From: Candidatus Saccharimonadota bacterium
GTDB lineage: Bacteria; Patescibacteriota; Saccharimonadia; Saccharimonadales; JAXHMH01
Length of the DNA stretch: 64,000 bases
Reading direction: 5' to 3'
Assembly (NCBI GenBank): GCA_034521515.1
Contig: JAXHMH010000002.1
Span: 512,444 to 576,443, forward strand
Shown here one piece after another: positions 2,116 through 52,438 of this stretch (positions are counted from its first letter, which is position 1; the number at the start of each line of letters is the position of its first letter). The notes beneath the pieces are model-generated. The model was not told the origin of the DNA. It saw nothing but the letters and a program-made list of their open reading frames with translations, and searched no databases. A program made the position numbers and the translations under genes.

Positions 2116-2122
2116 TAAGCCT

Positions 2123-2446
2123 ATGAGTGCATCTTCATTAACCGATTTACAGCAAAAAATTGATGACATTCTGCAGGATTACGAAAAACCGTATTGGGAG
2201 CCTTTGTCTAACATTGCTCGGTTGGTCGAAGAAGTCGGCGAGGTAGCTCGTATCGTCAACCATCGTTATGGTGACAAGCCGAAGAAAACTACCGAAGAGG
2301 CTGATGACTTAGAGGATGAACTAGCTGATGTGTTATGGACGGTAATTTGCCTTGCAAACAGTGAAGGCATTGATCTAGATAAAGGCATGCAGCGGGCAAT
2401 TGATAAGTTGCTAGTGCGGGATAAAGATCGGTTCAAGAAAAAATGA
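2123..2446 (+). CDS. MazG-like nucleotide pyrophosphohydrolase
   Basis: ATG at 2123; the track ORF start at 2018 lies inside rny. The helices EEVGEVARIV and ELADVLWTVICLAN are typical of the MazG/YpjD family. The stop overlaps the next start (ATGA). Confidence 0.75.
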   Translation: MSASSLTDLQQKIDDILQDYEKPYWEPLSNIARLVEEVGEVARIVNHRYGDKPKKTTEEADDLEDELADVLWTVICLANSEGIDLDKGMQRAIDKLLVRDKDRFKKK

Positions 2447-3240
2447 ACATACTCTACGTTGGCGACATTATGGGCGAGACTGGCATAAATACCGTTGAAA
2501 AGTTGTTGCCGGATCTTAAAAAACAGCACCAGGTTGATGTGGTGGTTGCGCAGGCGGAGAACGTAACTGACGGCAAAGGTTTATCCAAAACCGACTTTCA
2601 GCGGTTGCAGCGAATTGGTGTAGATTTTTGCACTGGTGGTAACTGGACGCTTCAACTGGACGAGCTTAAGGACTATCTAAACGACCCGCAGCAACCGGTG
2701 GTACGCCCGGCTAACTATCCAGCTGGTACGCCAGGTCGGGGTTGGAAGTATCTGGAAGGCAAGCACGGCAAAATCTTAGTCATTAGTTTGCTCGGCAAAA
2801 TTGTCGGGCGCGATGCAGACAAACCAGTCGACAACCCGCTGATTGTAGTTGATGAAATTTTACAAGAAAACAAAGACGTGGAGCGGGCAGCAACTATAGT
2901 TAATTTTCATGGTGATTACAGCAGCGAAAAGCGCATTATCGGCTATTACTTAGACGGACGAGTCACGGCGGTTATAGGCGATCACTGGCACGTGCCTACG
3001 GCTGATGCGATGGTGCTACCTAAAGGCACGGCGCACATGACTGACGTTGGTATGTGTGGCAGCTTGCATTCTAGTTTAGGTGTGTCGCTCGACTCAGTTA
3101 TACCGCGCTGGAAGGACGGCACTATCACCAAAAATCAGCTGGCAACCGAAAAACCACATCAATTTAATGCTACAATCATCGAAGCGGATAAAAACGGCTT
3201 CGCTATTAGCGTTGAACACATCCAACGCATCATTACCTAG
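2443..3240 (+). CDS. ymdB: YmdB-like metallophosphoesterase (2',3'-cyclic-nucleotide phosphodiesterase family)
   Basis: Motifs ILYVGDIMGETG, AENVTDGKG, NFHGDYSSEK and GDHWHVPTAD. Lies next to rny, as in Firmicutes. Confidence 0.85.
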   Translation: MNILYVGDIMGETGINTVEKLLPDLKKQHQVDVVVAQAENVTDGKGLSKTDFQRLQRIGVDFCTGGNWTLQLDELKDYLNDPQQPVVRPANYPAGTPGRGWKYLEGKHGKILVISLLGKIVGRDADKPVDNPLIVVDEILQENKDVERAATIVNFHGDYSSEKRIIGYYLDGRVTAVIGDHWHVPTADAMVLPKGTAHMTDVGMCGSLHSSLGVSLDSVIPRWKDGTITKNQLATEKPHQFNATIIEADKNGFAISVEHIQRIIT

Positions 3241-3309
3241 GCACATTTTGTTTTTAGAAAAAGCAGAAGAGCTTTGACCTCAAACTGTTTAACAGATATA
3301 ATTACACCA

Positions 3310-6300
3310 ATGAAGTGGTTGTGGCTACGGAGGGTAGCAGGTCAGGTCGGGGTGGTGGCGCTATTGCTCGGAATAGCGTTTTTTGCGGCCACACAATCAG
3401 CAGCTGACGGCGCCTGGATGGACGACGACTGGCAACACAGAAAGCTCATCACGATCGATGAGACAATGGTCTCTGGTGGGAGTGATTTAGCGAACTTTCC
3501 TATTTTGGTATCAGTTACCGACACGGACCTACGGAGTACCGATTTTGGCGGCGGGGTGGCAAATGTAGATGCCAACGACATTGTATTTACGCTCGATGAC
3601 GGCACAACACTGCTTGCGTATGAACTAGAGAGTTATAACGACCAAACTGGGGATTTGAATGCGTGGGTACGACTGCCATCCCTGTCTGCGACCATCGAGA
3701 CAGAATTGTACATCTACTACGGTAATGAGCTGGCAACGAACCAACAAGATCCGGACAATGTCTGGCCAGCCGATTATGTTATGGTGCAGCACCTTCAAGA
3801 GCAATCAGGATCTGGGAATTTTTTGGCAGATTCAACCAGCGTCGGGAACGACGGTATCCCTTTGGGTACGACACCAGCATTTAACTCCAGTTCCAGGATT
3901 AACGGAGGCTGGGGGTATGGTGGCAATAACCAGCAACGCATCGAAATAGCTGATAATACCAGTTTGCAGTTAGCGGATTCATTTACAGCAGAAGCATGGG
4001 CGCGGTTTACAAGTTGGACGACGCCAGACCATAACCCTGTTCTATGGAAAGGGTCGCAAATCGGGTGGGGAAATAATTATAACTTTAGAATCGCAGTTAG
4101 TAACGGAGCCCCTACTTGGGGGGTGACATGTAGTGCTGAGGGTTGGTTTGCTGGGGGTACGGTATCCTTGAATACCTGGAACCACTACGTTTTGACGTTT
4201 GACGGTACAACCGTCCGAGGTTTCTTAAATGGCACAGAAGTTGGTTCGACAACCGACTGTAGCGGACAATCGCTTAATACTATGGCGGGGAACCCGGTGC
4301 GTAGTGGTTTTGGGTACCGTAACAGTCCAACCCAGGAAACGCACATGGCGGGTGATGTTGATGAGCTACGGATAGCCAACCAAGCCCAGAGCTCAGCATG
4401 GATTCAGACTGGGTATAACAACATGAATGCCCCGGAGACGTACATTGGTTTTGGCCCCGAAGAAGACCGGGCGCCCGCCGTCCCCCAAACCCCCACTCTC
4501 CACGACTCAGGTGGCTCCACCCAACTGGCCTTTAACAACAGCCGTATAGATACTCAAACGCCTACCTTCCGTGTCTCAACTCCTGCAGATGACAACTACA
4601 ACCAAATCCAGTTAGAACTCAACACCGAATCTGACTTCTCTGGCACCAGCTACACCCAAACAACCACCGGTGCCTACATCACCAACGACCAATACAATAT
4701 CCCTGCCAATAGTCTTTCTCCAAGTCTCCCCACTACCGATAATGCAACCTACTACGTCCGTGTCCGAGCCTCCGCCGACGGAGGCACGACCTGGGGCAAC
4801 TGGTCTACAGACAACGCCTGCTGTGACCCATGGAGCTTTACCTACAGCAGTACAGAGGATGAGATGAGTTGGTTCCAGCAAACAGACGTCCAGTTTGACA
4901 CAAGCACGCTAGATGCTGCAGTTACGAATGATGGCGTGCTATTAGCGGCAAGCTCGTTTTCGGCAACTGGCGGGACCATTACTACCATTGGAGATAGCCG
5001 GTATCACGTTTTTACAAGCGATGGCAATTTGACGGTGACTGGGGATTCGTCAACAGGTGAGGTGCTAGTAGTCGGTGGTGGCGGTGGTGGCGCTGGCTCA
5101 GCAGGAAACGCTGGTCGTGGCGGTGGTGGCGCTGGTGGACTAGTCCATGATGAAAACTTTTCACTCAATAGCGGGAGTTATTCAGTTACCGTAGGCACCG
5201 GTGGAGCTGGCGGTGCAGCTTCTGGAGCAGACGGCAGCCAAGGGAGTAACTCATCATTTGATAGTCTTGTCGGAATAGGCGGCGGTGGCGGTGCTGGTTT
5301 GAATACCAACGGGGGAGCTGGTGGGTCTGGTGGTGGTGCCGGAGTGAACAATCTTACTCTGTCAGGTGGCGCTGCGCAGCAGCCAGGTTCAAGCTCCGGT
5401 GGATTTGGTAGTCAGGGCGGCACAGCGGATATATATGCGGTGGGTGCTGGTGGCGGCGGTGGCGGTGGTGCCGGTGCAGCAGGCGGTGCGGGCACGGCAA
5501 GTGCTGGCGGTTCGGGCGGTGCAGGCTTAGAGTTTTCTCAATTTTCTGCGGTTGGTGGATCACCTGCTGGATGGTTTGCTGGTGGTGGCGGCGCATCAGC
5601 TGGTACAACCGGGGGGCCGGGCGGTACTGGCGGTGGTGGTACAGGGTCAACTGATACCTCTTCAGCACAGAGTGGCGTAACAAGTACAGGTGGAGGTGGT
5701 GGCGGTTCGCAGGGTACCGGTGGCGGTGGCGGTGATGGTGGCTCTGGCGTCGTCATTGTTCGTTATGATGTATCGTTTGCTCCGACTGGCAGTGTTACTT
5801 CAGAACCAATCAATTATTCAAGCGTTCCAAGTGCTCTCACGTGGGACGAAATGGTCTGGGAGTCTGATGAGTCTAATGGGTCAATAGAAATGCGGTTGCT
5901 GTACTCAGATTCCGGTACATGTGATGCACTGGTTTCCGACACAGATCTAAGCGGAAACAGCACTGGTTTCACGACTTCGCCAGTCGACATAACGGGGCTT
6001 GATAGCAGTACGTATCAACAGCTTTGCCTCGAGGCTACGCTCACAGAAGACGGTGGATCGCCCGTGCTGCAAAGCTGGGGCATACGCTGGGAGAGGTTCT
6101 TGCCCGCCGTCCCCCAAACCCCCACTCTCCACGACTCAGGTGGCTCCACCCAACTGGCCTTTAACAACAGCCGTATAGATACTCAAACGCCTACCTTCCG
6201 TGTCTCAACTCCTGCAGATGACAACTACAACCAAATCCAGTTAGAACTCAACACCGAATCTGACTTCTCTGGCACCAGCTACACCCAAACAACCACCGGT

Positions 6301-9285
6301 GCCTACATCACCAACGACCAATACAATATCCCTGCCAATAGTCTTTCTCCAAGTCTCCCCACTACCGATAATGCAACCTACTACGTCCGTGTCCGAGCCT
6401 CCGCCGACGGAGGCACGACCTGGGGCAACTGGTCTACAGACAACGCCTGCTGTGACCCATGGAGCTTTACCTACAGCAGTACAGAGGATGAGATGAGTTG
6501 GTATCAAGCAGATGGAGCGCAATTTGCCACAAATGAGCTCACTGATACGGTTGTTGACGGTGATGATGTGGTGTTGGGCGCGGTCGGATCAGGGATTACT
6601 AACCCGACACAATTGACGACATATACGTCGACAACCAATCAGGCATCTGCAACAACCGCGAGTGTCTCGCCGGCCGGCAACGCCTTGATAGTTGTGCTGG
6701 TGGGCACCGGCAGTACTACAACACACACGCATAATGCCGTGACGAGCACCTTTGGCACAGTGGGCGGGTTTACGCAGCGCACCACACAACTCGGTACGAG
6801 CAATACCTTTTACAGGTATTCAATTTATACTGCTGTGACAACGGCAAGTCCAGGCTCTGGTACCATTACCGTTAATTACAGCGCTAATACCCCAAACCAA
6901 GTGCATTATGTATTGCAAGTGGCGGATGGTTTTGACACATCCGACCCGGTAATTCAGACGATTACAGCGACAACCGCAGCAACCACGCTGTCGATGGGCT
7001 TTCCTGCTACTCCGCAAACAAGCTCGCTCGTAATTGGCGGTATTGCCACGAGGCGAGGGACAGATATTGCAGGCACAAGTGGCTATACAACGTTTGCAAA
7101 TATTGATACCGGTGGGGGCACAAATGCCCGCGCGCAATCCCAATATCGTGTCGGTGACGCCGGAATAGGACTAAACTGGACAGGAGACGGGACCCTAGAA
7201 AATATGGTTGCTGGAGCGGTAGAGATACGTGCTGAAACAGCAGATGATGCAACGATTATGTCATCAGAAATCTTTTATGACTACGCACGGAGCCCGCAGA
7301 CTTGGGGTGAGGCGTCGTTTACGTCAAATGAAACAAATGGTGATATCAAATTACGCCTGTATCATAGTTTATCCACAGCCTGCGATACACAGATTCCGAA
7401 TGGAGATCTAGCAGGAAACACCGTTGGCTTTGACGCAACAGATGGATCAATTGACTTATCAGGGCTTAACACGACAACATATGACCAAATTTGTATACAG
7501 GCTACATTGTCAGATGTCGCAGGTACGCCATATTTACAGAGCTGGTCAGTTTCGTGGGAGACAGAACCCAACTTTGCGCCGAATGAACCGTGGGCTTTGG
7601 CTCAAACCAAGACCGATACCTCGCCTTTAGCGGTTGGTGATTGGACGAATGAAAGCTCAGTACGCTTTACAGCCAGTGCGACTGATTTTGATGCAACAGG
7701 TGACTTAGAGCTCTGTGTTGAAGCTCGCCCAATCGGTATCAGCTTCTTGGATGTGCAGAATGACTGTGGTGAACCCGTGGAGTACCAAGCTCCGATTTAC
7801 GAGTGTGACCCAACCGGGAATGCGCTATTTGAAAAGTATGATGGAGTAGCCGGCACAGACATTGCATCACTCTATGCAGCTCCGGCTTTCCCGAATAGTC
7901 CTAGTTCAAATCAAACGATAAGTGGCGGTTCGCTGGAGGGTCCAGTAAATATTGATGATACGTATGGTGGTCGTCTGTCGGCCTTGATTTGCCCACCACA
8001 AGATGGTGATTACACATTTTGGTTGTCGGCCGACGATAATGCTGAGCTGCGCATAAGTACAGATGTGAACCCGGCAAATGTCACAACTATAGCTTCCGTA
8101 CCTGGCTGGTCTGGCGTAGATGAGTGGATAATGTACCCTGAGCAGCAATCTGCACTCGTCACGCTTGAAGCAGACCAGTATTACTACATTGAAGCCAATT
8201 ACAATGAAGGAGCTGGTGGTGACCATGTTCAGATTGGGTGGACATTGCCCGACACGACAGTTGACCGACCGATTTCCGGTACGTACTATTCATTGCCTTC
8301 CGAAGAAGAAGAGCGAACGCTCATTTCTGGCGAGATTCCAACATTAACCGCAGCGCTTAACCTGGCGGATGCGGATAGCTATCATTGGCAAGCTCGGGTG
8401 CGTGACCAAGGCGGCCTCTACTCGAGCTGGGTAAACTTTGGTAGTAACCCAGAAGAGGAGCGTGACTTTGGGATAGACACAACTGCACCAACTAGTGGGA
8501 GTGTATACGATGGCGATGACCTTGGAGAGGACATGATGTTTAATGATGGGTCACTAGATACACTGTCGGCGAACTGGGAAGGCTTTGACTTTGATGTATC
8601 AGGAACGGTTGGCTATGAATATTCAATCGGTACAACGCCGGGTGGTACAGACACAGTTGATTGGACGGATGTCGGTACGGATACCTCGTTTACTATCAGC
8701 AGTCTAGAGCTCCAGACAAACCACGTTTACTACACGAACATTCGGGCTACAGATGTTGCTGGCAATACAGCGGTAGTGAGTTCCGATGGTCAATATGTTT
8801 TACCGACGCTGAGTTTTAGTGTATCGACTTCAAACATTACATTTGAGAATCTTGGTGCCAGTAATGACCGCACAGATTCTGAGGATGTCACGCTTACGAC
8901 CTCCACGAATGCCTACGCTGGCTATACGGTTCGGGCTCGAGCAACAGGGCAACTCAACGCAAATGGGTCGCATGATCTTCCATGGTTTAGCGCAGGGTCG
9001 TATGCTTCTCCGGTTGCCTGGGAGGATAGCAGTACCTGGGGGTACGGCTACACCTCAAGCGATACCAATGTGCAAGGTTCCAATAAGTTTGGCGATGGAA
9101 CATTGTTTGCTCCATTTACCACGCTTGCGCCTGGCGATATTGTGGCTGATAACACCGACAACACAACTGGTGTATCTATACAGGACGAGGAGTTTACAAT
9201 CACGCACCGGGTGGTTGCCCCAGAAGACCAGCCAGCTGGTTTCTACTCCACGACAATTTATTACACAGTGACAGCCGATTACTAA
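3310..9285 (+). CDS. Giant secreted multi-domain surface protein (DUF2341-like, LamG-like, Gly-rich, PA14-like and WxL-like C-terminal modules)
   Basis: Uninterrupted ORF; the track starts at TTG 3274, and ATG 3310 gives MKWLWL plus a TM/signal segment. N-terminal WQHRKLITID...LYIYYGN resembles DUF2341, and WNHYVLTFDG...DVDELRIAN resembles LamG. There is a long GGxGG region. GDYTFWLSADDNAELRIS...YYYIEANYNEGAGGDHVQIGW resembles PA14. The C-terminus is homologous to that of ORF 10393..11412. Confidence 0.85.
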   Translation: MKWLWLRRVAGQVGVVALLLGIAFFAATQSAADGAWMDDDWQHRKLITIDETMVSGGSDLANFPILVSVTDTDLRSTDFGGGVANVDANDIVFTLDDGTTLLAYELESYNDQTGDLNAWVRLPSLSATIETELYIYYGNELATNQQDPDNVWPADYVMVQHLQEQSGSGNFLADSTSVGNDGIPLGTTPAFNSSSRINGGWGYGGNNQQRIEIADNTSLQLADSFTAEAWARFTSWTTPDHNPVLWKGSQIGWGNNYNFRIAVSNGAPTWGVTCSAEGWFAGGTVSLNTWNHYVLTFDGTTVRGFLNGTEVGSTTDCSGQSLNTMAGNPVRSGFGYRNSPTQETHMAGDVDELRIANQAQSSAWIQTGYNNMNAPETYIGFGPEEDRAPAVPQTPTLHDSGGSTQLAFNNSRIDTQTPTFRVSTPADDNYNQIQLELNTESDFSGTSYTQTTTGAYITNDQYNIPANSLSPSLPTTDNATYYVRVRASADGGTTWGNWSTDNACCDPWSFTYSSTEDEMSWFQQTDVQFDTSTLDAAVTNDGVLLAASSFSATGGTITTIGDSRYHVFTSDGNLTVTGDSSTGEVLVVGGGGGGAGSAGNAGRGGGGAGGLVHDENFSLNSGSYSVTVGTGGAGGAASGADGSQGSNSSFDSLVGIGGGGGAGLNTNGGAGGSGGGAGVNNLTLSGGAAQQPGSSSGGFGSQGGTADIYAVGAGGGGGGGAGAAGGAGTASAGGSGGAGLEFSQFSAVGGSPAGWFAGGGGASAGTTGGPGGTGGGGTGSTDTSSAQSGVTSTGGGGGGSQGTGGGGGDGGSGVVIVRYDVSFAPTGSVTSEPINYSSVPSALTWDEMVWESDESNGSIEMRLLYSDSGTCDALVSDTDLSGNSTGFTTSPVDITGLDSSTYQQLCLEATLTEDGGSPVLQSWGIRWERFLPAVPQTPTLHDSGGSTQLAFNNSRIDTQTPTFRVSTPADDNYNQIQLELNTESDFSGTSYTQTTTGAYITNDQYNIPANSLSPSLPTTDNATYYVRVRASADGGTTWGNWSTDNACCDPWSFTYSSTEDEMSWYQADGAQFATNELTDTVVDGDDVVLGAVGSGITNPTQLTTYTSTTNQASATTASVSPAGNALIVVLVGTGSTTTHTHNAVTSTFGTVGGFTQRTTQLGTSNTFYRYSIYTAVTTASPGSGTITVNYSANTPNQVHYVLQVADGFDTSDPVIQTITATTAATTLSMGFPATPQTSSLVIGGIATRRGTDIAGTSGYTTFANIDTGGGTNARAQSQYRVGDAGIGLNWTGDGTLENMVAGAVEIRAETADDATIMSSEIFYDYARSPQTWGEASFTSNETNGDIKLRLYHSLSTACDTQIPNGDLAGNTVGFDATDGSIDLSGLNTTTYDQICIQATLSDVAGTPYLQSWSVSWETEPNFAPNEPWALAQTKTDTSPLAVGDWTNESSVRFTASATDFDATGDLELCVEARPIGISFLDVQNDCGEPVEYQAPIYECDPTGNALFEKYDGVAGTDIASLYAAPAFPNSPSSNQTISGGSLEGPVNIDDTYGGRLSALICPPQDGDYTFWLSADDNAELRISTDVNPANVTTIASVPGWSGVDEWIMYPEQQSALVTLEADQYYYIEANYNEGAGGDHVQIGWTLPDTTVDRPISGTYYSLPSEEEERTLISGEIPTLTAALNLADADSYHWQARVRDQGGLYSSWVNFGSNPEEERDFGIDTTAPTSGSVYDGDDLGEDMMFNDGSLDTLSANWEGFDFDVSGTVGYEYSIGTTPGGTDTVDWTDVGTDTSFTISSLELQTNHVYYTNIRATDVAGNTAVVSSDGQYVLPTLSFSVSTSNITFENLGASNDRTDSEDVTLTTSTNAYAGYTVRARATGQLNANGSHDLPWFSAGSYASPVAWEDSSTWGYGYTSSDTNVQGSNKFGDGTLFAPFTTLAPGDIVADNTDNTTGVSIQDEEFTITHRVVAPEDQPAGFYSTTIYYTVTADY
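4473..4873 (+). repeat. Copy 1 of a 401-bp perfect direct repeat inside the giant CDS
   Basis: Base-for-base identical to 6102..6502 by my reading. Offset is 1629 bp (543 codons, in frame). Encodes APAVPQTPTLHDSGG...STEDEMSW. Confidence 0.9.
6102..6502 (+). repeat. Copy 2 of the 401-bp perfect direct repeat inside the giant CDS
   Basis: Identical to 4473..4873. The domains flanking each copy are homologous but diverged. Confidence 0.9.
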
Positions 9286-9294: not shown

Positions 9295-10269
9295 ATGATT
9301 GTTGTTATGAACTTTTTCTCGCATCAACCCCGTGTACTTTTTAGGATTGCGTTGTTTTGTGTGGTTATGTTGAGCGCTGTTATGTATGTATGCAGTCAGC
9401 CAAGATTAATATTTGCACAAGTAGGCGATAACATGGAAGTTTCAGGATCGGGGCTTTCTGTTAGCCCAGCATTGATTGAGTTAACGCTTGATCCGGGCGA
9501 GTCACGAGATAAAGAGTTCTATGTTAATAATATTACTAAAACCCCTGTGCCACTGAACATCGGCACCCAGCCGTTGTATCCCAACGAACAAATTATTGAC
9601 GACACCAAGACCGATAGTTTTGATGCCGCTCAGTGGGTCAGCGTTGATGAGCCCGACAATATTTTAAATGCAGGTGAGCAGCGTCAACTGACTGCAAAGA
9701 TTTCTGTACCTGAGTCTGCAGAACCAGGCGGACATTATGCGACGATTGTGCTTGAGCCGCTCGTGCCAGCAACCGAAATGTCTAGTGGGGCAAGTATCGC
9801 TTCTCGGGTAGGGATACTGGTGTTTATTACCGTTTCTGGTGATGCCATATATGATGTCGAACTGCAAGAGCCTAGTGTAGGTAGATTGCAGTGGTCACGT
9901 CATGTGCCGATCACGGCGGAGTTTCTAAACCAAGGTACGATTCACATTTCTCCTACAACACGGGTGACAGTGAAAAATATTTTTGGTGACACGCTTGGGG
10001 AAGTACCCGTGCAGCCTCGTGTGGTGTTGCCAAATACACAAAAAATATTGCGTGCTCAGTGGAGAAGTCCATCGCTGATAGGTATATACTCTGCACAAAT
10101 CGAAGCCAGTTACGGGGAGGATGGAACGGTACTAGAAAGTGGGCAACGGTATTTTTTGGTAGTGCAATGGTTGCCAGTTTTAGGGATCGTCATTTTAGCG
10201 AGTATTCTTGGCTGGCTTATAAAAGTACGCCAACGATTACCAGCCGCTTGTAAGGCTTTTAGAGGGTGA
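9295..10269 (+). CDS. Membrane-anchored cell-surface protein, DUF916/DUF3324-like (CscA-like) architecture
   Basis: N-terminal signal/TM segment. Beta-rich body LSVSPALIELTLDPGESRDKEFYVNN with motif SAEPGGHYATIVLEP. Single C-terminal TM followed by KVRQR. Paralog of 11492..12427. Confidence 0.55.
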   Translation: MIVVMNFFSHQPRVLFRIALFCVVMLSAVMYVCSQPRLIFAQVGDNMEVSGSGLSVSPALIELTLDPGESRDKEFYVNNITKTPVPLNIGTQPLYPNEQIIDDTKTDSFDAAQWVSVDEPDNILNAGEQRQLTAKISVPESAEPGGHYATIVLEPLVPATEMSSGASIASRVGILVFITVSGDAIYDVELQEPSVGRLQWSRHVPITAEFLNQGTIHISPTTRVTVKNIFGDTLGEVPVQPRVVLPNTQKILRAQWRSPSLIGIYSAQIEASYGEDGTVLESGQRYFLVVQWLPVLGIVILASILGWLIKVRQRLPAACKAFRG

Positions 10270-13889: not shown

Positions 13890-13974
13890 AGCAAGAGTGC
13901 CGTTAACTGGCCATAAAACAGTGGTAAATCATTGAAAATATGCTATCATTGGATATCGTACAATCAAGCACCAT

Positions 13975-14155
13975 CGGGGTGTGGCCCCGCCTGTCTGGCC
14001 GAGCCCCCTGTCTTTCTGGCAAGAAGGCCAGGCAGGACGGACAGGGCAGTTGGCTAGCGTGAGAAGTGCCAGTGGCACTTCGCAAGGGAATCCACTCTTG
14101 CAAACTTGTTTGCTAAGATGTGGTGACGGGGTCGCAGAATGTGACCGCGGTTTGG
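13975..14155 (+). pseudogene. Interrupted 5'-half copy of tRNA-Pro
   Basis: cggggtgtggc, gcagttggctagcg and cgcggtttgg match tRNA-Pro positions 1 to about 36, in order. They are separated by inserts of 60 nt (13986..14045) and 86 nt (14060..14145). There is no matching 3' half. Confidence 0.75.
13986..14045 (+). repeat. 60-nt hairpin insertion element, copy A
   Basis: About 90 percent identical to 28161..28220 by my reading. Removing it restores a contiguous tRNA-Pro sequence (gtggc|gcag). Confidence 0.8.
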
Positions 14156-14205
14156 CCAAACCGGTTAGGACAGAACGTTAACAATTAACAAATAGATACA
14201 CCTAT

Positions 14206-14282
14206 CGGGGTGTGGCGCAGTTGGCTAGCGCGCGCGGTTTGGGACCGTGAGGTCGAAGGTTCGAGTCCTTTCACCCCGACCA
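14206..14282 (+). tRNA. tRNA-Pro (anticodon TGG), CCA encoded
   Basis: Manual cloverleaf: acceptor CGGGGTG/CACCCCG, anticodon loop TTTGGGA, T arm GAAGG-TTCGAGT-CCTTT, 77 nt. Confidence 0.9.
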
Positions 14283-14384
14283 ATAAAAAAAGGTTACCTT
14301 GTGTAGCCTTTTTTTATTGGTTAGAGTCAACGGCTCGGTTCTTCGACACAGATTTGCACCAGCAAATATGCAAGTCGAAGGTTC
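14268..14384 (+). repeat. 117-bp direct repeat, copy 1 (tRNA-Pro 3' end, bidirectional terminator and hairpin)
   Basis: Matches 14633..14749 with one mismatch. Contains the 14-nt inverted repeat ccaataaaaaaagg...cctttttttattgg. Confidence 0.85.
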
Positions 14385-14476
14385 GGTGTAGCGCAGCGTA
14401 GGCGAGAAAGCGCTTTAGCATTTTCTCGGCAAGCAAGCGGAAAAGGACGTAGTCCGCTGTCCTTTCACCCCGACCA
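14374..14476 (+). pseudogene. tRNA-Pro T-arm/acceptor fragment split by a 74-nt insert
   Basis: gtcgaaggttcg, then an insert (14386..14459), then tcctttcaccccgacca. The break falls right after TTCG of the T loop. Confidence 0.7.
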
Positions 14477-14564
14477 TGAAAAAGGAGTCTCTTCATTGAG
14501 ACTCTTTTTTCATGCTTGGCTGAAAAGATTTGGTTCTTCGACTCGACAGCTTCAGCTGGCGATA

Positions 14565-14647
14565 GTCGAATGGTTCGGTCGTTAGTCACAGACCCCAGCG
14601 TTAGCGGGCGTCTGGATTAACGTGCGTTGTCTCTTTCACCCCGACCA
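14565..14647 (+). pseudogene. Second, diverged tRNA-Pro T-arm/acceptor fragment split by a 54-nt insert
   Basis: gtcgaatggttcg, then an insert (14578..14631), then tctttcaccccgacca. Confidence 0.65.
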
Positions 14648-14749
14648 ATAAAAAAAGGTTACCTTGTGTAGCCTTTTTTTATTGGTTAGAGTCAACGGCT
14701 CGGTTCTTCGACGCAGATTTGCACCAGCAAATATGCAAGTCGAAGGTTC
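14633..14749 (+). repeat. 117-bp direct repeat, copy 2
   Basis: See 14268..14384. Offset is 365 bp. Confidence 0.85.
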
Positions 14750-14837
14750 AAGCCTGCCCCGCACCAGAATTGGCGCGCGGGTTCTTTCACTGAGCTTAAC
14801 TTAGCCTTTAGTTATAGCGCTTGCTACAATAAGGCGT

Positions 14838-19015: not shown

Positions 19016-19390
19016 GCGGGTGTCGTATAATGGCTAATATACCTGCCTTCCAAGCAGGCGATGCGAGTTCGCCCCGGTCATACGACGGGGCGCCCTATCG
19101 GATGATAGGGCGATTCTCAAGAAGCAACAATTAACAATCTACGGGTGTCGTATAATGGCTAATATACCTGCCTTCCAAGCAGGCGATGCGAGTTCGCCCC
19201 GGTCATACGACGGGGCGCCCTATCGGATGATAGGGCGATTCTCAAGAAGCAACAATTAACAATCTACGGGTGTCGTATAATGGCTAATATACCTGCCTTC
19301 CAAGCAGGCGATGCGAGTTCGCCCCGGTCATACGACGGGGCGCCCTATCGGATGATAGGGCGATTCTCAAGAAGCAACAATTAACAATCT
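19016..19390 (+). repeat. Three tandem 125-bp units, each a truncated tRNA-Gly copy with a 41-nt T-loop insert
   Basis: Units start at 19016, 19141 and 19266 and are identical except for the first base. Each holds tRNA-Gly nt 1-56, a two-hairpin insert, attctc, and a 22-nt spacer. Confidence 0.9.
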
Positions 19391-19465
19391 GCGGGTGTCG
19401 TATAATGGCTAATATACCTGCCTTCCAAGCAGGCGATGCGAGTTCGATTCTCGCCACCCGCACCA
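19391..19465 (+). tRNA. tRNA-Gly (anticodon TCC), CCA encoded
   Basis: Acceptor GCGGGTG/CACCCGC, anticodon loop CTTCCAA, T arm GCGAG-TTCGATT-CTCGC, 75 nt. Confidence 0.9.
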
Positions 19466-19498
19466 AATTATTGCTTCGCCACCCTAATCGATTATTCC

Positions 19499-19762
19499 AT
19501 GTTCTACGTATACTTCCTCAAGCTTAATAATGGCCAGATATGCACCGGCTACACCGAAAACCTAAAAAGACGCAAAAGTGAACATGATTTGGGCAAGGTT
19601 GCTTCAACTATGTCCCGACTTCCTTGTTGTTTAGTAGGATACGAAGCGTATGCTTTAAAGACAGATGCGATGCGACGAGAGAAGTTTCTTAAAACAACAG
19701 AAGGTAAAAAACTTTTTAAACAACAATATCGTGATATAATCACCTCTGTTGTGCCTCGGTAG
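19499..19762 (+). CDS. Small GIY-YIG nuclease-family protein
   Basis: ATG 19499 gives MFYVYFLKLNNGQICTGYTENLKRRKSEH (GIY-YIG core). The last 10 nt overlap the next tRNA. Confidence 0.8.
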   Translation: MFYVYFLKLNNGQICTGYTENLKRRKSEHDLGKVASTMSRLPCCLVGYEAYALKTDAMRREKFLKTTEGKKLFKQQYRDIITSVVPR

Positions 19763-19834: not shown

Positions 19835-20341
19835 ATGAAACAGATTAGTGTTAATGAGTTATATCAAGAAGGGTACAGTTATACTCTCGATGAACCAGCT
19901 GGGAAGAATTTTCATCCTGATTTTGAACCGGAGCTGACACCGAAAGAGATGCTGCAACTTGGTGTTTTTGGTGGAGATTACTTTCAGGCTATTCCAAACG
20001 AATTCCCAGAAGACTGGTTTGAGGGGGCTAAGTTATCCGAAATTGGCACGGCTGATAAAAACCTGAATTATTTTAAGGTAAACGCCAGCCAGTCACTCAA
20101 GGAGTGGCAAAGAAAGGGTTGGATATATTTTGAAGATCCTAAAGGTTGGTTTTTGTGGTACTGCCGCTACTATCGTGGCAGGCGAATACCAGAGGAGGAT
20201 GAGCGGCAAATCAAGCGCTGGCGAGCGATGAATCGGCATAAATCACAGGTAGAAAAGTTTTGTGAACCAGGCGATATGACATGTCGCCCACGCCAGCGGC
20301 AGGCGTTGCTACACTGGGCATACGATTCCCGCAAAATCTAA
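19835..20341 (+). CDS. Conserved hypothetical protein (168 aa)
   Basis: Clean ORF with a W/R-rich C-terminal half (GWFLWYCRYYRGRR...QIKRWRAMNRH). I cannot name a family. Confidence 0.6.
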   Translation: MKQISVNELYQEGYSYTLDEPAGKNFHPDFEPELTPKEMLQLGVFGGDYFQAIPNEFPEDWFEGAKLSEIGTADKNLNYFKVNASQSLKEWQRKGWIYFEDPKGWFLWYCRYYRGRRIPEEDERQIKRWRAMNRHKSQVEKFCEPGDMTCRPRQRQALLHWAYDSRKI

Positions 20342-20376
20342 AGAATAGGTTTAGCCCAACAAAACCCAAGGTAATT

Positions 20377-20961
20377 ATGAATAGTCAGAGCAGCGGGTTC
20401 GGAGATACACCAGAGACCGTCCAATTGACCATCTACAGGGATGGCTGCTACCATTGTTGTATGTCAACACGTCCTTGCCAGGTTTGTAACAAAAAATTTT
20501 ACGCCAAACCAAGTCATGTTCAGAAGGGTTGGGGTAAATTTTGTTCAAAAGCCTGCCAGTATACAGGGCAGAAGACGGGGCAGACTTATCCTTGCCACCA
20601 ATGTAAACAGCAGGTATACAGGACTGTCAAAGACAGGAGGCGCTCTAAGAGCGGAAAATTCTTTTGCGGTAGGTCCTGTCAAACAGTATGGAGGAACAGT
20701 ATGCTATACGCTGGCAAGCGTCACTCCAACTGGAACGGTGGCAAGGCATCGTATAGGAGCATCTTACTTAAGACAGGATTACCTAGAGTTTGCACTAGAT
20801 GCCGGTTAACTGATACACGGATTTTAGCAGTACATCATAAGGACAGAAACCGTAACAATAATGACGCATCGAATTTGATATGGCTTTGTCATAATTGCCA
20901 TTATTTAGTTCATCATTATGTTAATGAAGGAGCTGGGTTTTTGGCTCCTCGGACTATATAG
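20377..20961 (+). CDS. HNH endonuclease with Cys-rich N-terminal region
   Basis: LAVHHKDRNRNNNDASNLIWLCHNCHYLVHH is an HNH motif, and several CxxC pairs lie upstream. The start is uncertain (20377 or a later Met). Confidence 0.8.
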   Translation: MNSQSSGFGDTPETVQLTIYRDGCYHCCMSTRPCQVCNKKFYAKPSHVQKGWGKFCSKACQYTGQKTGQTYPCHQCKQQVYRTVKDRRRSKSGKFFCGRSCQTVWRNSMLYAGKRHSNWNGGKASYRSILLKTGLPRVCTRCRLTDTRILAVHHKDRNRNNNDASNLIWLCHNCHYLVHHYVNEGAGFLAPRTI

Positions 20962-27578: not shown

Positions 27579-27905
27579 ATGGCATATAAGGACATTGAGG
27601 ATAGCAGGGCAGCCATCAGACGCCATTACTATGAAAACAAAGAGAAATACTTAGCAAAGAACAAACTTAGACGCCAAAAAATAAAAGAGTATGTGAATAA
27701 AATTAAGGCTTCCACTCCATGTGCAGATTGTAAGAATTCCTACCCATATTACGTTATGGATTTTGACCACTTGAGAGACAAGACGACTATAATTAACAAC
27801 TTTGTGAGAGCCTCGAATTTATCTGGCTTAAAAAAAGAGATAAAAAAGTGCGAAATTGTTTGCGCAAACTGCCATAGAATGAGAACATTTAATCGTATTG
27901 AGTAA
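27579..27905 (+). CDS. Small HNH endonuclease
   Basis: CADCKNSYPYYVMDFDHLRDK...CEIVCANCHRMRT. Confidence 0.75.
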   Translation: MAYKDIEDSRAAIRRHYYENKEKYLAKNKLRRQKIKEYVNKIKASTPCADCKNSYPYYVMDFDHLRDKTTIINNFVRASNLSGLKKEIKKCEIVCANCHRMRTFNRIE

Positions 27906-27916: not shown

Positions 27917-27993
27917 GCACCCGTAGCTCAGCGGATTAGAGCACTGGTCTTCGGAACCAGGTGTCGCAGGTTCGAATCCTGCCGGGTGTACCA
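27917..27993 (+). tRNA. tRNA-Arg (anticodon TCG), CCA encoded
   Basis: Acceptor GCACCCG/CGGGTGT, anticodon loop CTTCGGA, T arm GCAGG-TTCGAAT-CCTGC, 77 nt. Confidence 0.85.
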
Positions 27994-28006
27994 GGAGAAA
28001 TATAAG

Positions 28007-28030
28007 CCACCTTGCAAAAGGTGGTTTTTA
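28007..28030 (+). terminator. Rho-independent terminator after tRNA-Arg
   Basis: Stem ccacctt / aaggtgg followed by ttttt. Confidence 0.75.
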
Positions 28031-28087
28031 TTTCTGCTCGATGCTCGAGCCAGGGTTTGAACCGTCAAGCGAGCTTATGCGAGCGGA

Positions 28088-28229
28088 GGTTCGGCGTATG
28101 TGAGTCCGCTGGTCAGCGGACGAACGAAGAAGCCCATCTTTGATGGGCGCTATCCTGCCGCCCGCCTATCTGACCGAGTCTCCTGTCTTTCTGACAAGAA
28201 GGCCAGGCAGGACGGACAGGGGTGTACCA
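28088..28229 (+). pseudogene. tRNA-Arg 3' fragment split by two inserts
   Basis: ggttcg, a 58-nt insert (28094..28151), atcctgccg, a 60-nt insert (28161..28220), then ggtgtacca. Removing the inserts gives the T-loop-to-CCA sequence of the upstream tRNA-Arg. Confidence 0.75.
28161..28220 (+). repeat. 60-nt hairpin insertion element, copy B
   Basis: Homologous to 13986..14045. Excision restores cctgccg|ggtgtacca exactly. Confidence 0.8.
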
Positions 28230-28646: not shown

Positions 28647-29312
28647 ATGGAACGAACTTGGTATATCTGGAGTATACTTATGGCAACTATTATGAGCATT
28701 GAGTATTTAGAGAATCTTGTAAAAGAAGCCCATCAAGCCGGCAAATCTATAGAAGGTTCGGCAGATGCAAGTGAGTTGGCGCACCTTGCCTCATTAGCCA
28801 AAACGCCAAATGTATCGAAAGTGGGCGAGGTGGGTTTTATTGCCGGTTTATCTAGCTACTCGTTCCTTGAGGCAAGCCCAGACGTCAAAGTCTACTCATT
28901 CGATATTGGAGAATACGATTACGTTACGCCAGCCAAACAGTTTATAGACCAAACTTTTCCAGACAGGCATGTCCTAACCGTTGGTGATTCGCTAGAAACT
29001 CTGCCGCAATTTTACAAAGACAACCCAGCTCTTAATTTTGACATTATATTCGTTGACGGCAGTCATGATTACGAAGTTGTTAAAGCGGATTTACTAAACA
29101 TGCGAAATTTTGCACATCAAGACACTGTTTTAGTAATAGACGACTTAACACCTTGGAAGCCCTGGGGTGTAGGACCTACCAAGGCTTGGAGCGAAATGAT
29201 CGACAAGAATATCGTCAGGCAGGATGTACTTTTTAGAGATGGCGAACGTGTGCAGTCTATTGAGCCTCCTGGTGAAAGAAGCTGGGCAGTTGGTGCTTAC
29301 ATCTTTGAGTAA
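28647..29312 (+). CDS. Class I SAM-dependent methyltransferase (O-methyltransferase-like)
   Basis: VGEVGFIAGLSS (a degenerate glycine-rich motif-I region, weakly SAM-binding-like) and IIFVDGSHDYEVVKADL. The start is uncertain, with several in-frame Met. Confidence 0.65.
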   Translation: MERTWYIWSILMATIMSIEYLENLVKEAHQAGKSIEGSADASELAHLASLAKTPNVSKVGEVGFIAGLSSYSFLEASPDVKVYSFDIGEYDYVTPAKQFIDQTFPDRHVLTVGDSLETLPQFYKDNPALNFDIIFVDGSHDYEVVKADLLNMRNFAHQDTVLVIDDLTPWKPWGVGPTKAWSEMIDKNIVRQDVLFRDGERVQSIEPPGERSWAVGAYIFE

Positions 29313-51270: not shown

Positions 51271-51307
51271 TGCAAGGTTAGACCTTGCAACAAGGTCTAA
51301 CCTTGCA
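51271..51307. repeat. REP-like hairpin flanking the transposase gene (left)
   Basis: tgcaaggttagaccttg caa caaggtctaaccttgca: 17-bp stem, 3-nt loop. Confidence 0.8.
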
Positions 51308-51337: not shown

Positions 51338-51967
51338 TTAAGTATCTGCCAGGATTCCTTTTAGGAGCTTCAAATCCTTACGTTGTGCCTTGTACTCACT
51401 TACGAATTTCCTATAGTCTTTGGTGCTGTTGTCGTGAAGTTCCATGATCTTGTCCGGCCTAAGCCATTCTGCCGTACGTGTCTTCATATAGTACGGAAAA
51501 CTGGAATAGTCATAGGTTTCGTAGTCGACATTGATGTCTTGAGGATTCAGGTGTATGTACCGGCTAATATGTAATAAATAGTCATCCTTATCTATAAGAC
51601 TTGCTTTGTAGGTGCCCTGGAATAAGCTGCCAACTCGCTTGTGGCGCTTATTGAAATACATGCTATAAGCTGTCATTAGTCGGTGCATGAGTTCTGGCAG
51701 GCCTTTATCTTCCTGATTGTAGACAAGGAGATGGAAGTGATTTGGCATCAGGCAGAAAGCCAATAACTCCACTTTGTTTAACAGATGTGCAAAATCTCTG
51801 CCATACTTATCTTGAAGTGGTTCGTTAGACAGGTGGCGCTTAAAAAGGTGTAAAAAATAAAAGTAGTCATCTGAGTCTAGAAAAACGTCAGATTTATTTA
51901 CACCACGATTATAAACGTGGTAGTAGTTATCGCTAGCTAACTGTTTTACTACATGACGACTCGGCAT
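51338..51967 (-). CDS. IS200/RAYT-type Y1 (HUH) transposase
   Basis: YYHVYNRGVNK, the HUH motif PNHFHLLV and SRYIHLNP. ATG 51967 preferred; the track start at 52021 runs through the REP hairpin. Confidence 0.8.
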   Translation of the reverse strand: MPSRHVVKQLASDNYYHVYNRGVNKSDVFLDSDDYFYFLHLFKRHLSNEPLQDKYGRDFAHLLNKVELLAFCLMPNHFHLLVYNQEDKGLPELMHRLMTAYSMYFNKRHKRVGSLFQGTYKASLIDKDDYLLHISRYIHLNPQDINVDYETYDYSSFPYYMKTRTAEWLRPDKIMELHDNSTKDYRKFVSEYKAQRKDLKLLKGILADT

Positions 51968-51971
51968 AATA

Positions 51972-52006
51972 ACAAGGTCTAACCTTGCAACAAGGTTAGA
52001 CCTTGT
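51972..52006. repeat. REP-like hairpin flanking the transposase gene (right)
   Basis: acaaggtctaaccttg caa caaggttagaccttgt: the same arms as the left copy, in swapped order. Confidence 0.8.
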
Positions 52007-52065
52007 TGTGGACGGTGTCAAGGTGTTGTGATATATTGACCCGAGTAAATAAGCTTTATTGACGA

Positions 52066-52140
52066 GGCCTCATCGTCTAACGGTTAGGACATCAGGTTTT
52101 CATCCTGGAAATCGGGGTTCGATTCCCCGTGAGGTCACCA
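52066..52140 (+). tRNA. tRNA-Glu (anticodon TTC), CCA encoded
   Basis: Acceptor GGCCTCA/TGAGGTC, anticodon loop TTTTCAT, T arm CGGGG-TTCGATT-CCCCG, 75 nt. Confidence 0.9.
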
Positions 52141-52179
52141 AAGAAAAAGCCCCATGCAGTTTGTTTGGGGCTTTTTCTT
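52141..52179 (+). terminator. Rho-independent terminator after tRNA-Glu
   Basis: 14-bp stem aagaaaaagcccca / tggggctttttctt. Confidence 0.75.
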
Positions 52180-52212
52180 TGGTGGTTTCCCGCAGGGAAA
52201 CCGAACCCCGAG

Positions 52213-52319
52213 GGGGTTCGCATAACGTCAAATGTATCGTTTGACGTTATTTAGCCGATGGTATAACTAGAAGCAAAGCGGATAGTTATACCATCAAAGC
52301 GTTGGAGCCGTGAGGTCAC
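52213..52319 (+). pseudogene. tRNA-Glu T-arm/acceptor fragment split after TTCG by an insert of about 87 nt
   Basis: ggggttcg, then an insert with two hairpins of 11-12 bp, then ccgtgaggtcac. Confidence 0.65.
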
Positions 52320-52368
52320 AGTTTTTGTTTGGTGGTCCGCCGACTGGCGGACGAATCAAACCCCAGGC

Positions 52369-52438
52369 GGTTCGCTAATCCCCCGCCAACTTGTTGCCAA
52401 ACGGGCGGATTATATTTCCATATTCCCGGTGAGGTCAC
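52369..52438 (+). pseudogene. Second tRNA-Glu T-arm/acceptor fragment split after TTCG by a 47-nt insert
   Basis: ggttcg, then an insert, then attcccggtgaggtcac. Confidence 0.65.

Follow-up and report, generated by a model that had tools for sequence, protein, structure and literature searches.

Four of the seven tRNA genes found with ARAGORN and Rfam in a 64-kb stretch of Saccharibacteria DNA (hereafter the window), those for tRNA-Pro(UGG) (at 14206-14282), tRNA-Gly, tRNA-Arg(TCG) and tRNA-Glu, are flanked by their own partial copies, as counted in an earlier note on this DNA, and short structured inserts lie within these copies. Similar units adjoin 11 of 76 Saccharibacteria tRNAs (seven genomes), in a recurring order of tRNA, terminator, a hairpin ending in the 5' half of a T arm, an insert of 40-140 nt, and a T-arm 3' half with acceptor; an intact, uninterrupted tRNA gene is present in every case. 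The evidence points to undescribed tRNA-associated mobile DNA, which we favor over random decay, and a literature search found no account of such an architecture of split-T-arm, insert-filled tRNA fragments. Saccharibacteria genomes are very small and streamlined and the loci examined have a single gene for each tRNA anticodon, such that stacked partial tRNA copies and folded mini-elements are unexpected.

Partial tRNA copies and inserts in the window

The intact tRNA-Pro(UGG) gene (14206..14282; all features are on the forward strand unless stated) lies among its own fragments at the coordinates given previously, and comparison of the gene with its own 2.4-kb flanks gives E-values as low as 2e-6 (blastn-short). 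Upstream is a 5' copy (13975..14155) in which gene positions 1-11, 12-25 and 28-37 are matched exactly and colinearly at 13975-13985, 14046-14059 and 14146-14155; these positions define two inserts of 60 nt and 86 nt, the sizes originally reported. The first, E60 copy 1 (13986..14045; bounds from comparison with the intact tRNA), lies between C11 and G12 of the fragment without a target duplication, and the second, E86 (14060..14145; 101.6 bits with a covariance model), is an 86-nt three-helix structured element belonging to a seven-copy family. The 5' copy ends after the anticodon and is followed by an inverted complement, CCAAACCG (14156-14163), at the start of the linker to the intact gene (14156..14205), which includes a double heptamer TTAACAA-TTAACAA (14180-14191). 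This double heptamer has four matches in the window, all of them preceding intact Pro or Gly genes or the Gly repeat copies. A promoter-like site, TTGAAA-16-TATCGT (13932..13959), is present upstream of the 5' fragment, with -10 boxes at the equivalent place in genomes L174 and L082; if used, the fragment and its inserts would form the leader of the tRNA-Pro transcript. L174 has the same upstream arrangement minus E60, and in L082 this side of tRNA-Pro is empty.

Downstream, exact matches to tRNA-Pro positions 47-58, 60-77, 63-77 and 47-57 are at 14374-14385, 14459-14476, 14633-14647 and 14739-14749, respectively. The 3' part of the tRNA is directly repeated in copies of 18, 15 and 10 nt, with similar repeats for Arg and Glu. 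Module A (14268..14384) consists of the T-arm 3' half with acceptor and CCA, a terminator (14278-14321), a spacer hairpin CTTCGAC...GTCGAAG (14341-14380) that is conserved in L082, where C-G replaces A-T as a compensatory change, and a T-arm 5' half ending GGTTC. Insert I1 (14386..14458), of the type-1 family, is located between GGTTCG and GTCCTTTCACCCCGACCA. Module B (14459..14578) includes a displaced tRNA-Pro 3' end (positions 60-77), terminator B, spacer hairpin B and the T-arm 5' half GTCGAATGGTTCG (14566-14578); it can be aligned over its full length with a module in L165, and 36 nt of its spacer part (14477-14565) are matched there at 89% identity. Insert I2 (14579..14629) is one long hairpin (z = -4.6) for which no relatives were found. 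It is followed by another tRNA-Pro 3' end copy with module A' (14630..14749), and A' (14633-14749) is 99% identical to module A (14268-14384), corresponding to the 117-bp repeat of the tRNA 3' end and terminator noted before. Insert I3 (type-2-like) and a last, truncated 3' remnant, GTTCTTTCAC (14781-14790), complete the array (14750..14790), and I3 aligns with the inserts at the L082 Pro and His genes. The segment 14739-14790 is a third, truncated tRNA-Pro unit, of which the previous description was incomplete. A 15-mer match to the tRNA-Pro 3' end in L004 lies inside an ORF, and additional short tRNA matches in the fillers, for example to the D arm of tRNA-Glu (14162-14172) or over 14 nt at 28969-28982, are no more than chance would give with the panel used.

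The tRNA-Gly gene is preceded by three tandem 125-nt units (19016..19390), each containing tRNA-Gly positions 1-56, a 41-nt double hairpin, ATTCTC, and a linker with TTAACAA; these have sub-threshold tRNA scores of 25-26 bits (Rfam). The intact gene (19391-19465) is followed by a short displaced 3' remnant, TCGCCACCC (19476-19484; segment 19391..19484). At tRNA-Arg(TCG) (27917..28229) the gene and its terminator are followed by AGGTTCG (28087-28093), a 58-nt insert, ATCCTGCCG (28152-28160), the 60-nt E60 copy 2 (28161..28220) and GGTGTACCA, with the 58-nt insert containing a hairpin GTCCGC..GCGGAC at 28104-28121. The tRNA-Glu locus (52066..52438) includes a bidirectional terminator at 52135-52184. 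In its two split-T-arm units the 5' halves of the T arm end at 52220 and 52374, and the 3' halves are at 52308-52319 and 52422-52438. This array also carries the GTCCGC..GCGGAC hairpin (52335-52352) and folds strongly (z = -7.7), and L171, the closest relative with the tRNA-Glu locus, has no split-T-arm units there.

The independent T-arm 5' halves in the window end at closely similar positions, with six of seven stopping after TTCG and one after TTC; the chance of such clustering is ~1e-9 by our own calculation, which assumes breaks to be uniform along a 75-nt gene. The left junction is equally sharp in the other genomes, falling after TTCG in most units without target duplication, and the right junction is spread over roughly standard positions 55-63; the T-arm 5' and 3' halves are 40-140 nt apart in all of the split units. 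A break directly after TTCG, as first proposed, thus describes most T-arm 5' halves but not the single TTC end, nor the E86 copies, which lie at the T-stem/T-loop boundary in L174 and between the D and anticodon arms in the window. Hairpins with stems of at least 5 bp occur at 14.3 per kb in the arrays versus 7.4 per kb in the Saccharibacteria background.

Insert families and their distribution

The E86 family has seven copies in three genomes, every one of them inside a tRNA fragment and in the tRNA-sense orientation. Compensatory changes are seen at 17 of the 32 pairs with 95% of cells paired, and none of 500 shuffles reaches the observed covariation, with slid controls giving no more than 3; one G-U pair is invariant, which indicates folding of the sense strand. 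In L174, the unit following tRNA-His is chimeric, with an Arg-type 5' half (AAGGTCGGGG), E86, and a His 3' half, such that the 5' half appears to travel with the element. The copies upstream of tRNA-Pro in the window and L174, between which ClpC is 70% identical, are orthologous, and this copy has long been static, as would suit a retained functional element no less than a mobile one. None of the other window inserts is recognized as a remote E86 member by the covariance model.

Several other families are present. The two E60 copies in the window are both within tRNA fragments and are 92% identical (a 61-nt repeat match, 28161-28221). Type-1 inserts are found at tRNA-Pro (I1 in the window, and L165) and at tRNA-Arg and tRNA-Gly in L013, and type-2 inserts at Pro and His in L082, with the similar I3 in the window; that inserts of one family occur at more than one tRNA species speaks for a target common to all tRNAs, the T arm. 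The I2, Gly 41-mer, Glu-1 and Glu-2 inserts are singletons in ~0.5 Mb of Saccharibacteria DNA. The GTCCGC..GCGGAC hairpin has a GT(A/G)G-like head in three of its four copies in 64 kb of the genome, but statistics do not support such a head as a general feature of all array hairpins, with no overall enrichment. Of the readings in the earlier note, a family of miniature elements aimed at T loops is the closer to the data in that E86 (seven copies), E60 (two) and two more families recur, but the families are several and unrelated, and some are not located exactly after TTCG.

The families have no termini in common, and neither terminal inverted repeats nor target duplications were seen, including at E60 and E86, whose bounds are set against the intact tRNA; in this they differ from the MITEs of DDE transposons. 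Within each of the Gly, Glu-1 and Arg inserts the two hairpins are unrelated to each other, unlike the similar sub-terminal hairpins at the left and right ends of IS200/IS605-type elements (PATEs). Scans of the window, the Pro region and L172 against Rfam 15 at gathering and permissive thresholds yielded only tRNA matches, and E60, the type-1 3' end, hairpin A and hairpin B were all without matches in scans of viral contigs. Derivation of the inserts from the neighboring endonuclease or transposase ORFs was considered and rejected, as tblastn shows no similarity.

Among 60 tRNAs of other phyla there are no real cases of these units, since three automated flags, including the matches in the non-Saccharibacteria L019 and L069, proved to be neighboring tRNAs. 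Comparison of orthologous tRNA loci in search of empty sites, as previously recommended, identified them at tRNA-Pro in L001, L002, L015 and L083, and at tRNA-Glu in L171. In a metagenome scan with ClpC, the matches listed were mostly to distant phyla, and the useful ones were L082 and L083. Displaced 3' copies of 19-22 nt are present in L163 and L007. Conservation of the spacer hairpins and inserts, accompanied by compensatory changes, extends across genomes in which the neighboring proteins are only 49-70% identical, and spacer hairpins are kept with compensatory change even where the adjacent protein is only 49% identical. No copies of the insert families were found outside tRNA fragments and no site was found to be filled in one and empty in another of two close strains, and it is from their distribution that the modules are presumed to be mobile.

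The larger ORFs of the window (n = 50) include no integrase, recombinase, reverse transcriptase or TnpB in Pfam scans; there is no IntI-like ORF, and no R''/R' core boxes were recognized by inspection. The units themselves lack ORFs, and none contains an integrase in any of the seven genomes. The window does encode a RayT-like Y1 (IS200-like) transposase (51338..52021, reverse strand; Y1_Tnp match, with a 209-aa product in the source annotation), homologues of which are named RayT in some sources. This gene is syntenic in L171 and L172, where it also adjoins tRNA-Glu, and is flanked by paired palindromes (51270-51307 and 51970-52007). The inserts are not copies of these palindromes, as CAAGGTTAGACCTTG occurs only beside the gene and no insert resembles it, and the likeness of the window palindrome to a T arm is probably coincidental because the RayT gene of L008 is flanked by an unrelated palindrome. 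The RayT-like protein is only a candidate for a trans-acting enzyme. There are also three free-standing homing endonuclease ORFs, one GIY-YIG (~19499-19762) and two HNH (within 20281-20961, and 27579-27905).

Possible origins of the units

The explanation that we prefer, albeit tentatively and at somewhat less than an even chance, is that there are several families of small, non-autonomous modules that fold as single strands, insert into or duplicate tRNA T arms, and persist only in redundant copies. Redundant partial copies would have been built around a tRNA gene and then colonized by small (~40-140 nt), non-coding, strongly folded modules. The recurring downstream unit consists of a replacement 3' end with its terminator, a conserved spacer hairpin in which the T-arm 5' half, ending TTCG, forms the 3' strand, a structured insert drawn from the E86, type-1, type-2, GTCCGC hairpin or other families, and the displaced T-arm 3' half with acceptor; the units upstream of tRNA-Pro and tRNA-Gly are mirror images of this. 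The modules may act as single-stranded nucleic acid folded in the sense strand, presumably entering tRNA genes at the T arm and less often at other arm junctions, with the enzyme supplied in trans. As insertion into the only functional copy would be lethal, the survivors would be insertions into redundant copies or those bringing a replacement tRNA segment. Homologous exchange among the repeated tRNA pieces could then shuffle and amplify them, generating the 117-nt repeat and the array of three 125-nt units. Mobile modules alone give no account of how the partial tRNA duplications first arose.

A more speculative and, we think, unlikely proposal is that tRNA T arms in one Saccharibacteria clade serve as the docking site of a hairpin-dependent insertion system for single-stranded DNA (or RNA). 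A single-stranded T arm with a terminator hairpin 19 nt further on is similar to an end of IS200/IS605- or REP-type elements, and a Y1 HUH enzyme such as the resident RayT, or some other enzyme, might cut after TTCG and join in structure-defined modules such as E86 and type-1. Arrays like those of integrons would result, made up of ORF-less cassettes with T-loop half-sites as their boundaries, and tRNA structure would define both the target of this mobile-DNA system and its cassette boundaries.

The units could instead be collapsed integrative elements, arising from repeated tyrosine-recombinase integration at T-loop or anticodon-loop att sites with each event supplying a replacement 3' end and terminator; att arms may have fused after cargo loss, or cargo-less elements may have been mobilized in cis or in trans in the manner of CIMEs, with the conserved hairpins being arm-type protein-binding regions. 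We regard this as rather unlikely, although likenesses to island att fragments and CIMEs are several, including direct tRNA 3'-end repeats that start in the T or anticodon loop, regeneration of a functional gene at one end, and stacking of fragments in arrays beside the gene. The stacked, decayed att scars envisaged earlier are supported to the extent that the 18-22 nt 3' copies running from T loop to CCA, sometimes with a terminator, are classic displaced fragments and that the Pro 5' copy stops within the anticodon loop; kb-scale stacks of tRNA 3' fragments are also present in other phyla (L019, L071). Complete lambda-type attP sites have a size range that takes in the 105-250 bp of the units, and related integrases can retarget to different tRNAs with their arms retained. 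However, there is no integrase in the window or in any of the ORF-less units, and there are fragments on the 5' side of the gene as well (Gly, Pro, L013-Arg and L174-Arg). The displaced T arm is interrupted by a structured insert (5' half, insert, 3' half) rather than continuing from the crossover, which integration at a T-arm-like core would not yield, and covariation with the invariant G-U pair points to single-strand folding, not to duplex protein-binding arms; the four motifs sought in viral contigs likewise gave nothing. Neutral decayed scars are rejected, since the inserts form recurring families with compensatory changes. The strong covariation and sense-strand G-U pairs of E86 would also be in keeping with functional structured RNAs. 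The units would then be retained parts of tRNA primary transcripts, E86 and the other folded inserts would help to process, stabilize or regulate the adjacent tRNA or act as T-arm/acceptor mimics, and gene conversion would keep the tRNA-like flanks similar to the gene. The upstream Pro and Arg copies are placed between promoter and tRNA and would therefore be transcribed as leader, the Pro-upstream arrangement is common to the window and L174, and in L082 both a fragment and its tRNA have an unusual U56. This too is unlikely, given that the downstream units lie behind strong terminators without promoter-like sites, that copy number and composition vary among tRNAs and genomes, that many relatives lack units entirely, and that no Rfam family is matched; many of the 3' halves are truncated or degenerate (14781-14790, L165 and L013-Arg), indicating that the tRNA-like part is not under selection.

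Less probable still is that the units are by-products of break repair, in which a homing endonuclease or other nuclease cuts T-loop DNA and repair from sister or imported DNA leaves partial duplications in which hairpin filler, either captured or templated, occupies the break. Saccharibacteria are thought to be naturally competent, and the free-standing GIY-YIG and HNH ORFs lie between or adjoining tRNAs, with the compact Gly-Arg-His cluster of L082 and Gly-Arg pair of L083 lacking them. The anticodon stem of an upstream tRNA-Arg pseudo-copy in L174 differs from the intact one, as though through import of a replacement allele, and the perfect long hairpins look like fold-back synthesis. But filler is expected to be unique to each break, and the inserts instead form cross-genome families with conserved sequence and covarying structure; they have no similarity to the endonuclease ORFs, and tRNA-Pro and tRNA-Glu have units yet no adjacent endonuclease ORF. 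We know of no cleavage specificity for these GIY-YIG and HNH proteins. Reverse transcription with breaks at modified bases (e.g. m1A58, m1G37) was also considered; the copies in L007 and L082 that take in the terminator speak for an origin at the DNA level. An assembly artefact, with collapsed or chimerically joined repeats in a metagenome-assembled genome, is extremely improbable. The 125-nt tandem and 117-nt repeats may approach or exceed the short-read length, so array copy numbers may be wrong, and an independent Logan contig from a separate assembly (L081) ends inside the repeat; that contig nonetheless reproduces the 14749/14750 junction, and independently made assemblies that differ in sample and pipeline (L007, L013, L082, L163, L165, L168, L174 and L175) show the architecture with homologous inserts.

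Relation to known systems and implications

The mobile modules that we favor have partial parallels in REP, BIME and REPIN sequences with their RAYT enzymes, and in IS200/IS605 elements. These too are small extragenic hairpin modules that form mosaics at gene 3' ends, with strand-specific orientation and no target duplications. A RayT-like gene is likewise present, vertically inherited and flanked by inverted palindromes. We know of no instance in which REPs duplicate pieces of neighboring genes. REP palindromes are preserved by compensatory mutation (PMC2817692), as are the palindromes here, and one hairpin family has the GT(A/G)G-like head, palindrome and CGAA of the published REPs (PMC2817692). 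In contrast to REP systems, copy numbers here are tiny and all copies are in tRNA-gene fragments with none dispersed, the RayT-flanking palindromes differ in sequence from the inserts, and the GT(A/G)G head is not enriched overall.

The Escherichia coli tyrT locus has 178-bp repeats (rtT), and the final 19 nt of tRNA-Tyr form the end of each one. These resemble the present units in being tandem repeats 3' of a tRNA gene that re-create the tRNA 3' end in each copy, but rtT is a single locus in one lineage with neither a T-loop-split arm nor structured insert families, and no Rfam rtT match is present in the analysed sequence. Integron arrays (attI and attC) similarly grow beside one fixed site, contain cassettes that can be shuffled, and have unit boundaries set by a folded single-stranded site in which sequence varies and structure is kept; here, however, the window has no IntI gene, the units are ORF-less and the fixed site is a tRNA T arm. 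Bacterial group I and archaeal bulge-helix-bulge tRNA introns, and split or permuted tRNAs, also place extra sequence within tRNA genes, including the T loop, but the interrupted copies described here are incomplete tRNAs, the inserts are much shorter than group I introns, and no intron or ribozyme family is matched.

The elements break short-read assemblies at tRNA loci and give near-threshold pseudo-tRNA matches, and they could act as lineage markers. The E86 covariance model makes a genome- and metagenome-wide census directly possible. If the modules are mobile, they would represent a new set of selfish DNAs that target tRNA structure; if functional, they would be new structured RNAs attached to tRNA transcripts.

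Split tRNA copies in the window and in relatives

All of the fragment arrays reported in the earlier note beside tRNA-Pro, tRNA-Gly, tRNA-Arg and tRNA-Glu are present in the window, for which ARAGORN and Rfam concordantly predict seven tRNAs. The intact tRNA-Pro gene (14206-14282) is preceded by a 5' copy composed of gene positions 1-11, 12-25 and 28-37, with 60-nt and 86-nt inserts (E60 and E86) between the segments and an end just past the anticodon. It is followed by three units, each a partial gene copy in which the T arm is split into a 5' half, an insert and a 3' half: GTCGAAGGTTCG, 73 nt and GTCCTTTCACCCCGACCA in the first; GTCGAATGGTTCG, 51 nt and TCTCTTTCACCCCGACCA in the second; and GTCGAAGGTTC, 31 nt and GTTCTTTCAC in the third. 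A 117-nt repeat at this locus (copies 99% identical) spans the T loop, acceptor, terminator, spacer hairpin and next T loop. Upstream of tRNA-Gly there are three identical 125-nt units, each consisting of positions 1-56, a 41-nt double hairpin and ATTCTC, and split-T-arm units are also present downstream of tRNA-Arg(TCG) (one) and tRNA-Glu (two). The claim that the copies break at the T loop is borne out, as six of the seven independent 5' halves in the window end after TTCG and the other after TTC. The inserts fold far better than shuffled controls do (the first Glu unit, for example, has z = -7.7).

A promoter search found no promoter-like sites 5' of the downstream units, and the sole such site near tRNA-Pro is upstream of its 5' fragment. 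A 12-nt sequence built from a doubled TTAACAA-like heptamer, AACAATTAACAA, is found at 14180-14191, 19126-19137, 19251-19262 and 19376-19387, restricted to sites just 5' of intact tRNA-Pro, intact tRNA-Gly and the repeated Gly units; in the related locus L013 the intact tRNA-Arg has a comparable ACAATC motif on its 5' side. A 14-nt exact match to the tRNA-Glu D arm at 28969-28982 (minus strand), within a methyltransferase ORF (28647-29312), is probably due to chance. The window is chromosomal DNA, and the neighbouring genes have housekeeping roles (RNase Y, a ClpC-type ATPase, Mur ligases, MurB, DHFR, glycolytic enzymes and UvrD). A 2003-aa surface-protein-like ORF (3274-9285) contains a perfect 300-nt direct repeat (4473-4772 and 6102-6401) and a glycine-rich GGTGGTGGC-type repeat tract (~5074-5747).

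Orthologous loci were retrieved with ClpC, RayT and the ORF that follows tRNA-Pro as anchors. Protein identity to the closest relatives found is only 59-72%, such that units are compared across deeper divergence and not between strains. Units are present in L007 (Pro), L013 (Arg-TCT, Gly), L082 (Pro, His), L163 (Pro), L165 (Pro), L168 (Gly) and L174/L175 (Pro, Arg, His), in the order tRNA, terminator, hairpin (with the T-arm 5' half as its 3' strand), insert, and T-arm 3' half with acceptor; the displaced 3' half frequently carries a further terminator. Under relaxed criteria an automatic screen identified units at 10 of 76 Saccharibacteria tRNAs, and the L013 Arg unit was recognized by eye; under a stricter screen 3 of 60 tRNAs from other phyla were flagged, all three being neighbouring tRNAs rather than units. 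An independent Logan assembly reproduces one junction, its contig being broken within the repeat, and recurrence of the pattern in independent assemblies excludes an assembly artefact. Clean loci, present in many Saccharibacteria, represent empty sites: tRNA-Pro has no units in L001, L002, L015 and L083, L082 lacks the upstream tRNA-Pro fragment, and tRNA-Glu of L171 has no units although it shares RayT (67% identity) and the flanking palindromes with the window.

Several of these loci have other unusual features. In L172 a ~430-nt hairpin-rich non-coding stretch follows tRNA-Glu (9420-9854, minus strand), ending in a degenerate T-arm/acceptor/CCA copy; it has no Rfam match and is a larger version of the window arrays. 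The L082 tRNA-Pro (2147-2222) has an unusual T loop (TTTGAGT, U56) and a D loop without the GG dinucleotide; the two features may together represent compensation within the G19-C56 tertiary pair. U56 is also present in the downstream fragment. A disrupted upstream tRNA-Arg(TCT) copy in L174 (13350-13536) differs from the adjacent intact gene in the D loop and anticodon stem and resembles the tRNA-Arg(TCT) of the window, and the functional L174 gene may thus be a replacement allele. In L168 a large serine recombinase gene (1932-3576) lies directly 3' of tRNA-Pro, convergent with it, and borders an apparent 8-kb insertion whose other end showed no tRNA fragment.

Insert and hairpin families

L174 and L175 together carry six homologues of E86 (14060-14145), which flank tRNA-Pro and tRNA-Arg(TCT) on both sides and follow tRNA-His. 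Every copy is within a tRNA-gene fragment and in the tRNA-sense orientation. Their alignment supports three helices of 32 pairs (95% of cells paired), with compensatory changes at 17 of the 32; none of 500 column shuffles reached the observed values, and sliding the partners by 1-3 columns gave at most three compensatory pairs. One invariant G-U pair indicates that the folding strand is the tRNA-sense strand. Run against the window and 29 Saccharibacteria loci, a covariance model (R1) built from the known copies found no others. The Pro-upstream site is common to the window and L174, whose ClpC proteins are 70% identical, indicating that the insertion is old, and E60, missing from the orthologous L174 site, arrived later. 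The two E60 copies in the window (92% identical) interrupt the Pro fragment in its D arm and the Arg fragment where the T stem joins the acceptor, with ends set by alignment with the intact genes and no target duplication.

Type-1 inserts (in the first Pro unit of the window, L165-Pro, L013-Arg and L013-Gly) have a 13-mer and a 12-mer in common, and the first two share a conserved 3' end, GGACnTAGTCCGCTG. Type-2 inserts link L082-Pro with L082-His and, less clearly, the third Pro unit of the window. There are also two spacer-hairpin types. Type A is found in the window and L082, which differ by a compensatory A-T to C-G change, and type B in the window and L165, in modules that align over their full length and include a 36-nt stretch of 89% identity where the adjacent protein is merely 49% identical. 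Pairings vary, with A joined to type-1 in the window and B to type-1 in L165. Across 0.49 Mb of Saccharibacteria DNA there are four copies of a GTCCGC-N-GCGGAC hairpin, always 42-205 nt 3' of a tRNA. The suggestion of a family of miniature elements targeting tRNA T loops is partly supported: the inserts recur as families, but these are several and separate (E86, E60, type-1 and type-2).

Candidate enzymes

The candidate enzyme adjoining tRNA-Glu is a RayT-like Y1 transposase, with REPIN-like paired inverted 15-nt palindromes on both sides (CAAGGTTAGACCTTG; 51270-52007 with the gene) that have no further copies in the window. The gene, its tRNA-Glu adjacency and the palindrome sequence are all kept in L171, and L172 and L008 have different palindromes. 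Further candidates are GIY-YIG and HNH-like ORFs between tRNAs. The Gly-Arg-His spacer contains a GIY-YIG ORF (19436-19762) whose end falls within tRNA-Arg(TCT), and a 168-aa ORF with no assigned family (19835-20341); two ORFs (20281-20961, and 27579-27905 preceding tRNA-Arg(TCG)) are HNH-like by eye with no Pfam match. In L082 Gly, Arg and His lie inside 300 nt without these small ORFs, and the Gly-Arg gap in L083 is 10 nt.

Origin of the arrays

The arrays partly resemble tRNA att-site repeats, with regeneration of the gene and displacement of a 3' end, but the window contains no integrase. Neutral, decaying att scars, one of two readings in the earlier note, fail as the sole explanation because alignable sequence and covarying helices are kept across deep divergence. 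Classical integrase islands are likewise unsupported, as no recombinase genes were found in the window, the units are ORF-less, the displaced T arm is split, and some fragments are on the 5' side; an integrase may be encoded elsewhere in the genome, beyond the window. Known introns, ribozymes and other Rfam families gave no match and are excluded at the available sensitivity. Small mosaic extragenic palindromes, compensatory evolution, lack of target duplication and a Y1 gene are all reminiscent of REP/BIME or IS200/IS605-derived hairpin elements (REP features from PMC2817692), but the palindromes beside RayT bear no relation to the inserts. The arrays thus fit tRNA-associated mobile or repetitive DNA broadly yet depart from what defines att and REP/BIME systems, and literature searches found no published description of their architecture. 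With lower probability, they reflect either new functional RNAs or a separate insertion system guided by tRNA structure.

In the most likely mechanism, non-autonomous modules of several families, folding as single strands, would enter tRNA genes, chiefly through the T arm. The left junction (5' half/insert) is sharp and the right (insert/3' half) variable, and the L174 His unit is chimeric, with an Arg-type 5' half, E86 and then a His 3' half, which suggests that the insert and the T-arm 5' half move together. In the simplest formal description, a downstream unit would arise from a small module of 3' end, terminator, hairpin, 5' half and insert, integrating Campbell-fashion through 3'-end or T-loop identity so that the gene is regenerated and the old 3' end displaced. 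Surviving events would be those that spare a functional tRNA copy or bring the functional segment along, such that the intact gene is never interrupted and every redundant T arm is. Subsequent exchange between repeated tRNA pieces would explain the 99%-identical, T-loop-bounded modules A (14268-14384) and A' (14633-14749), the three identical Gly units and the differing spacer/insert pairings.
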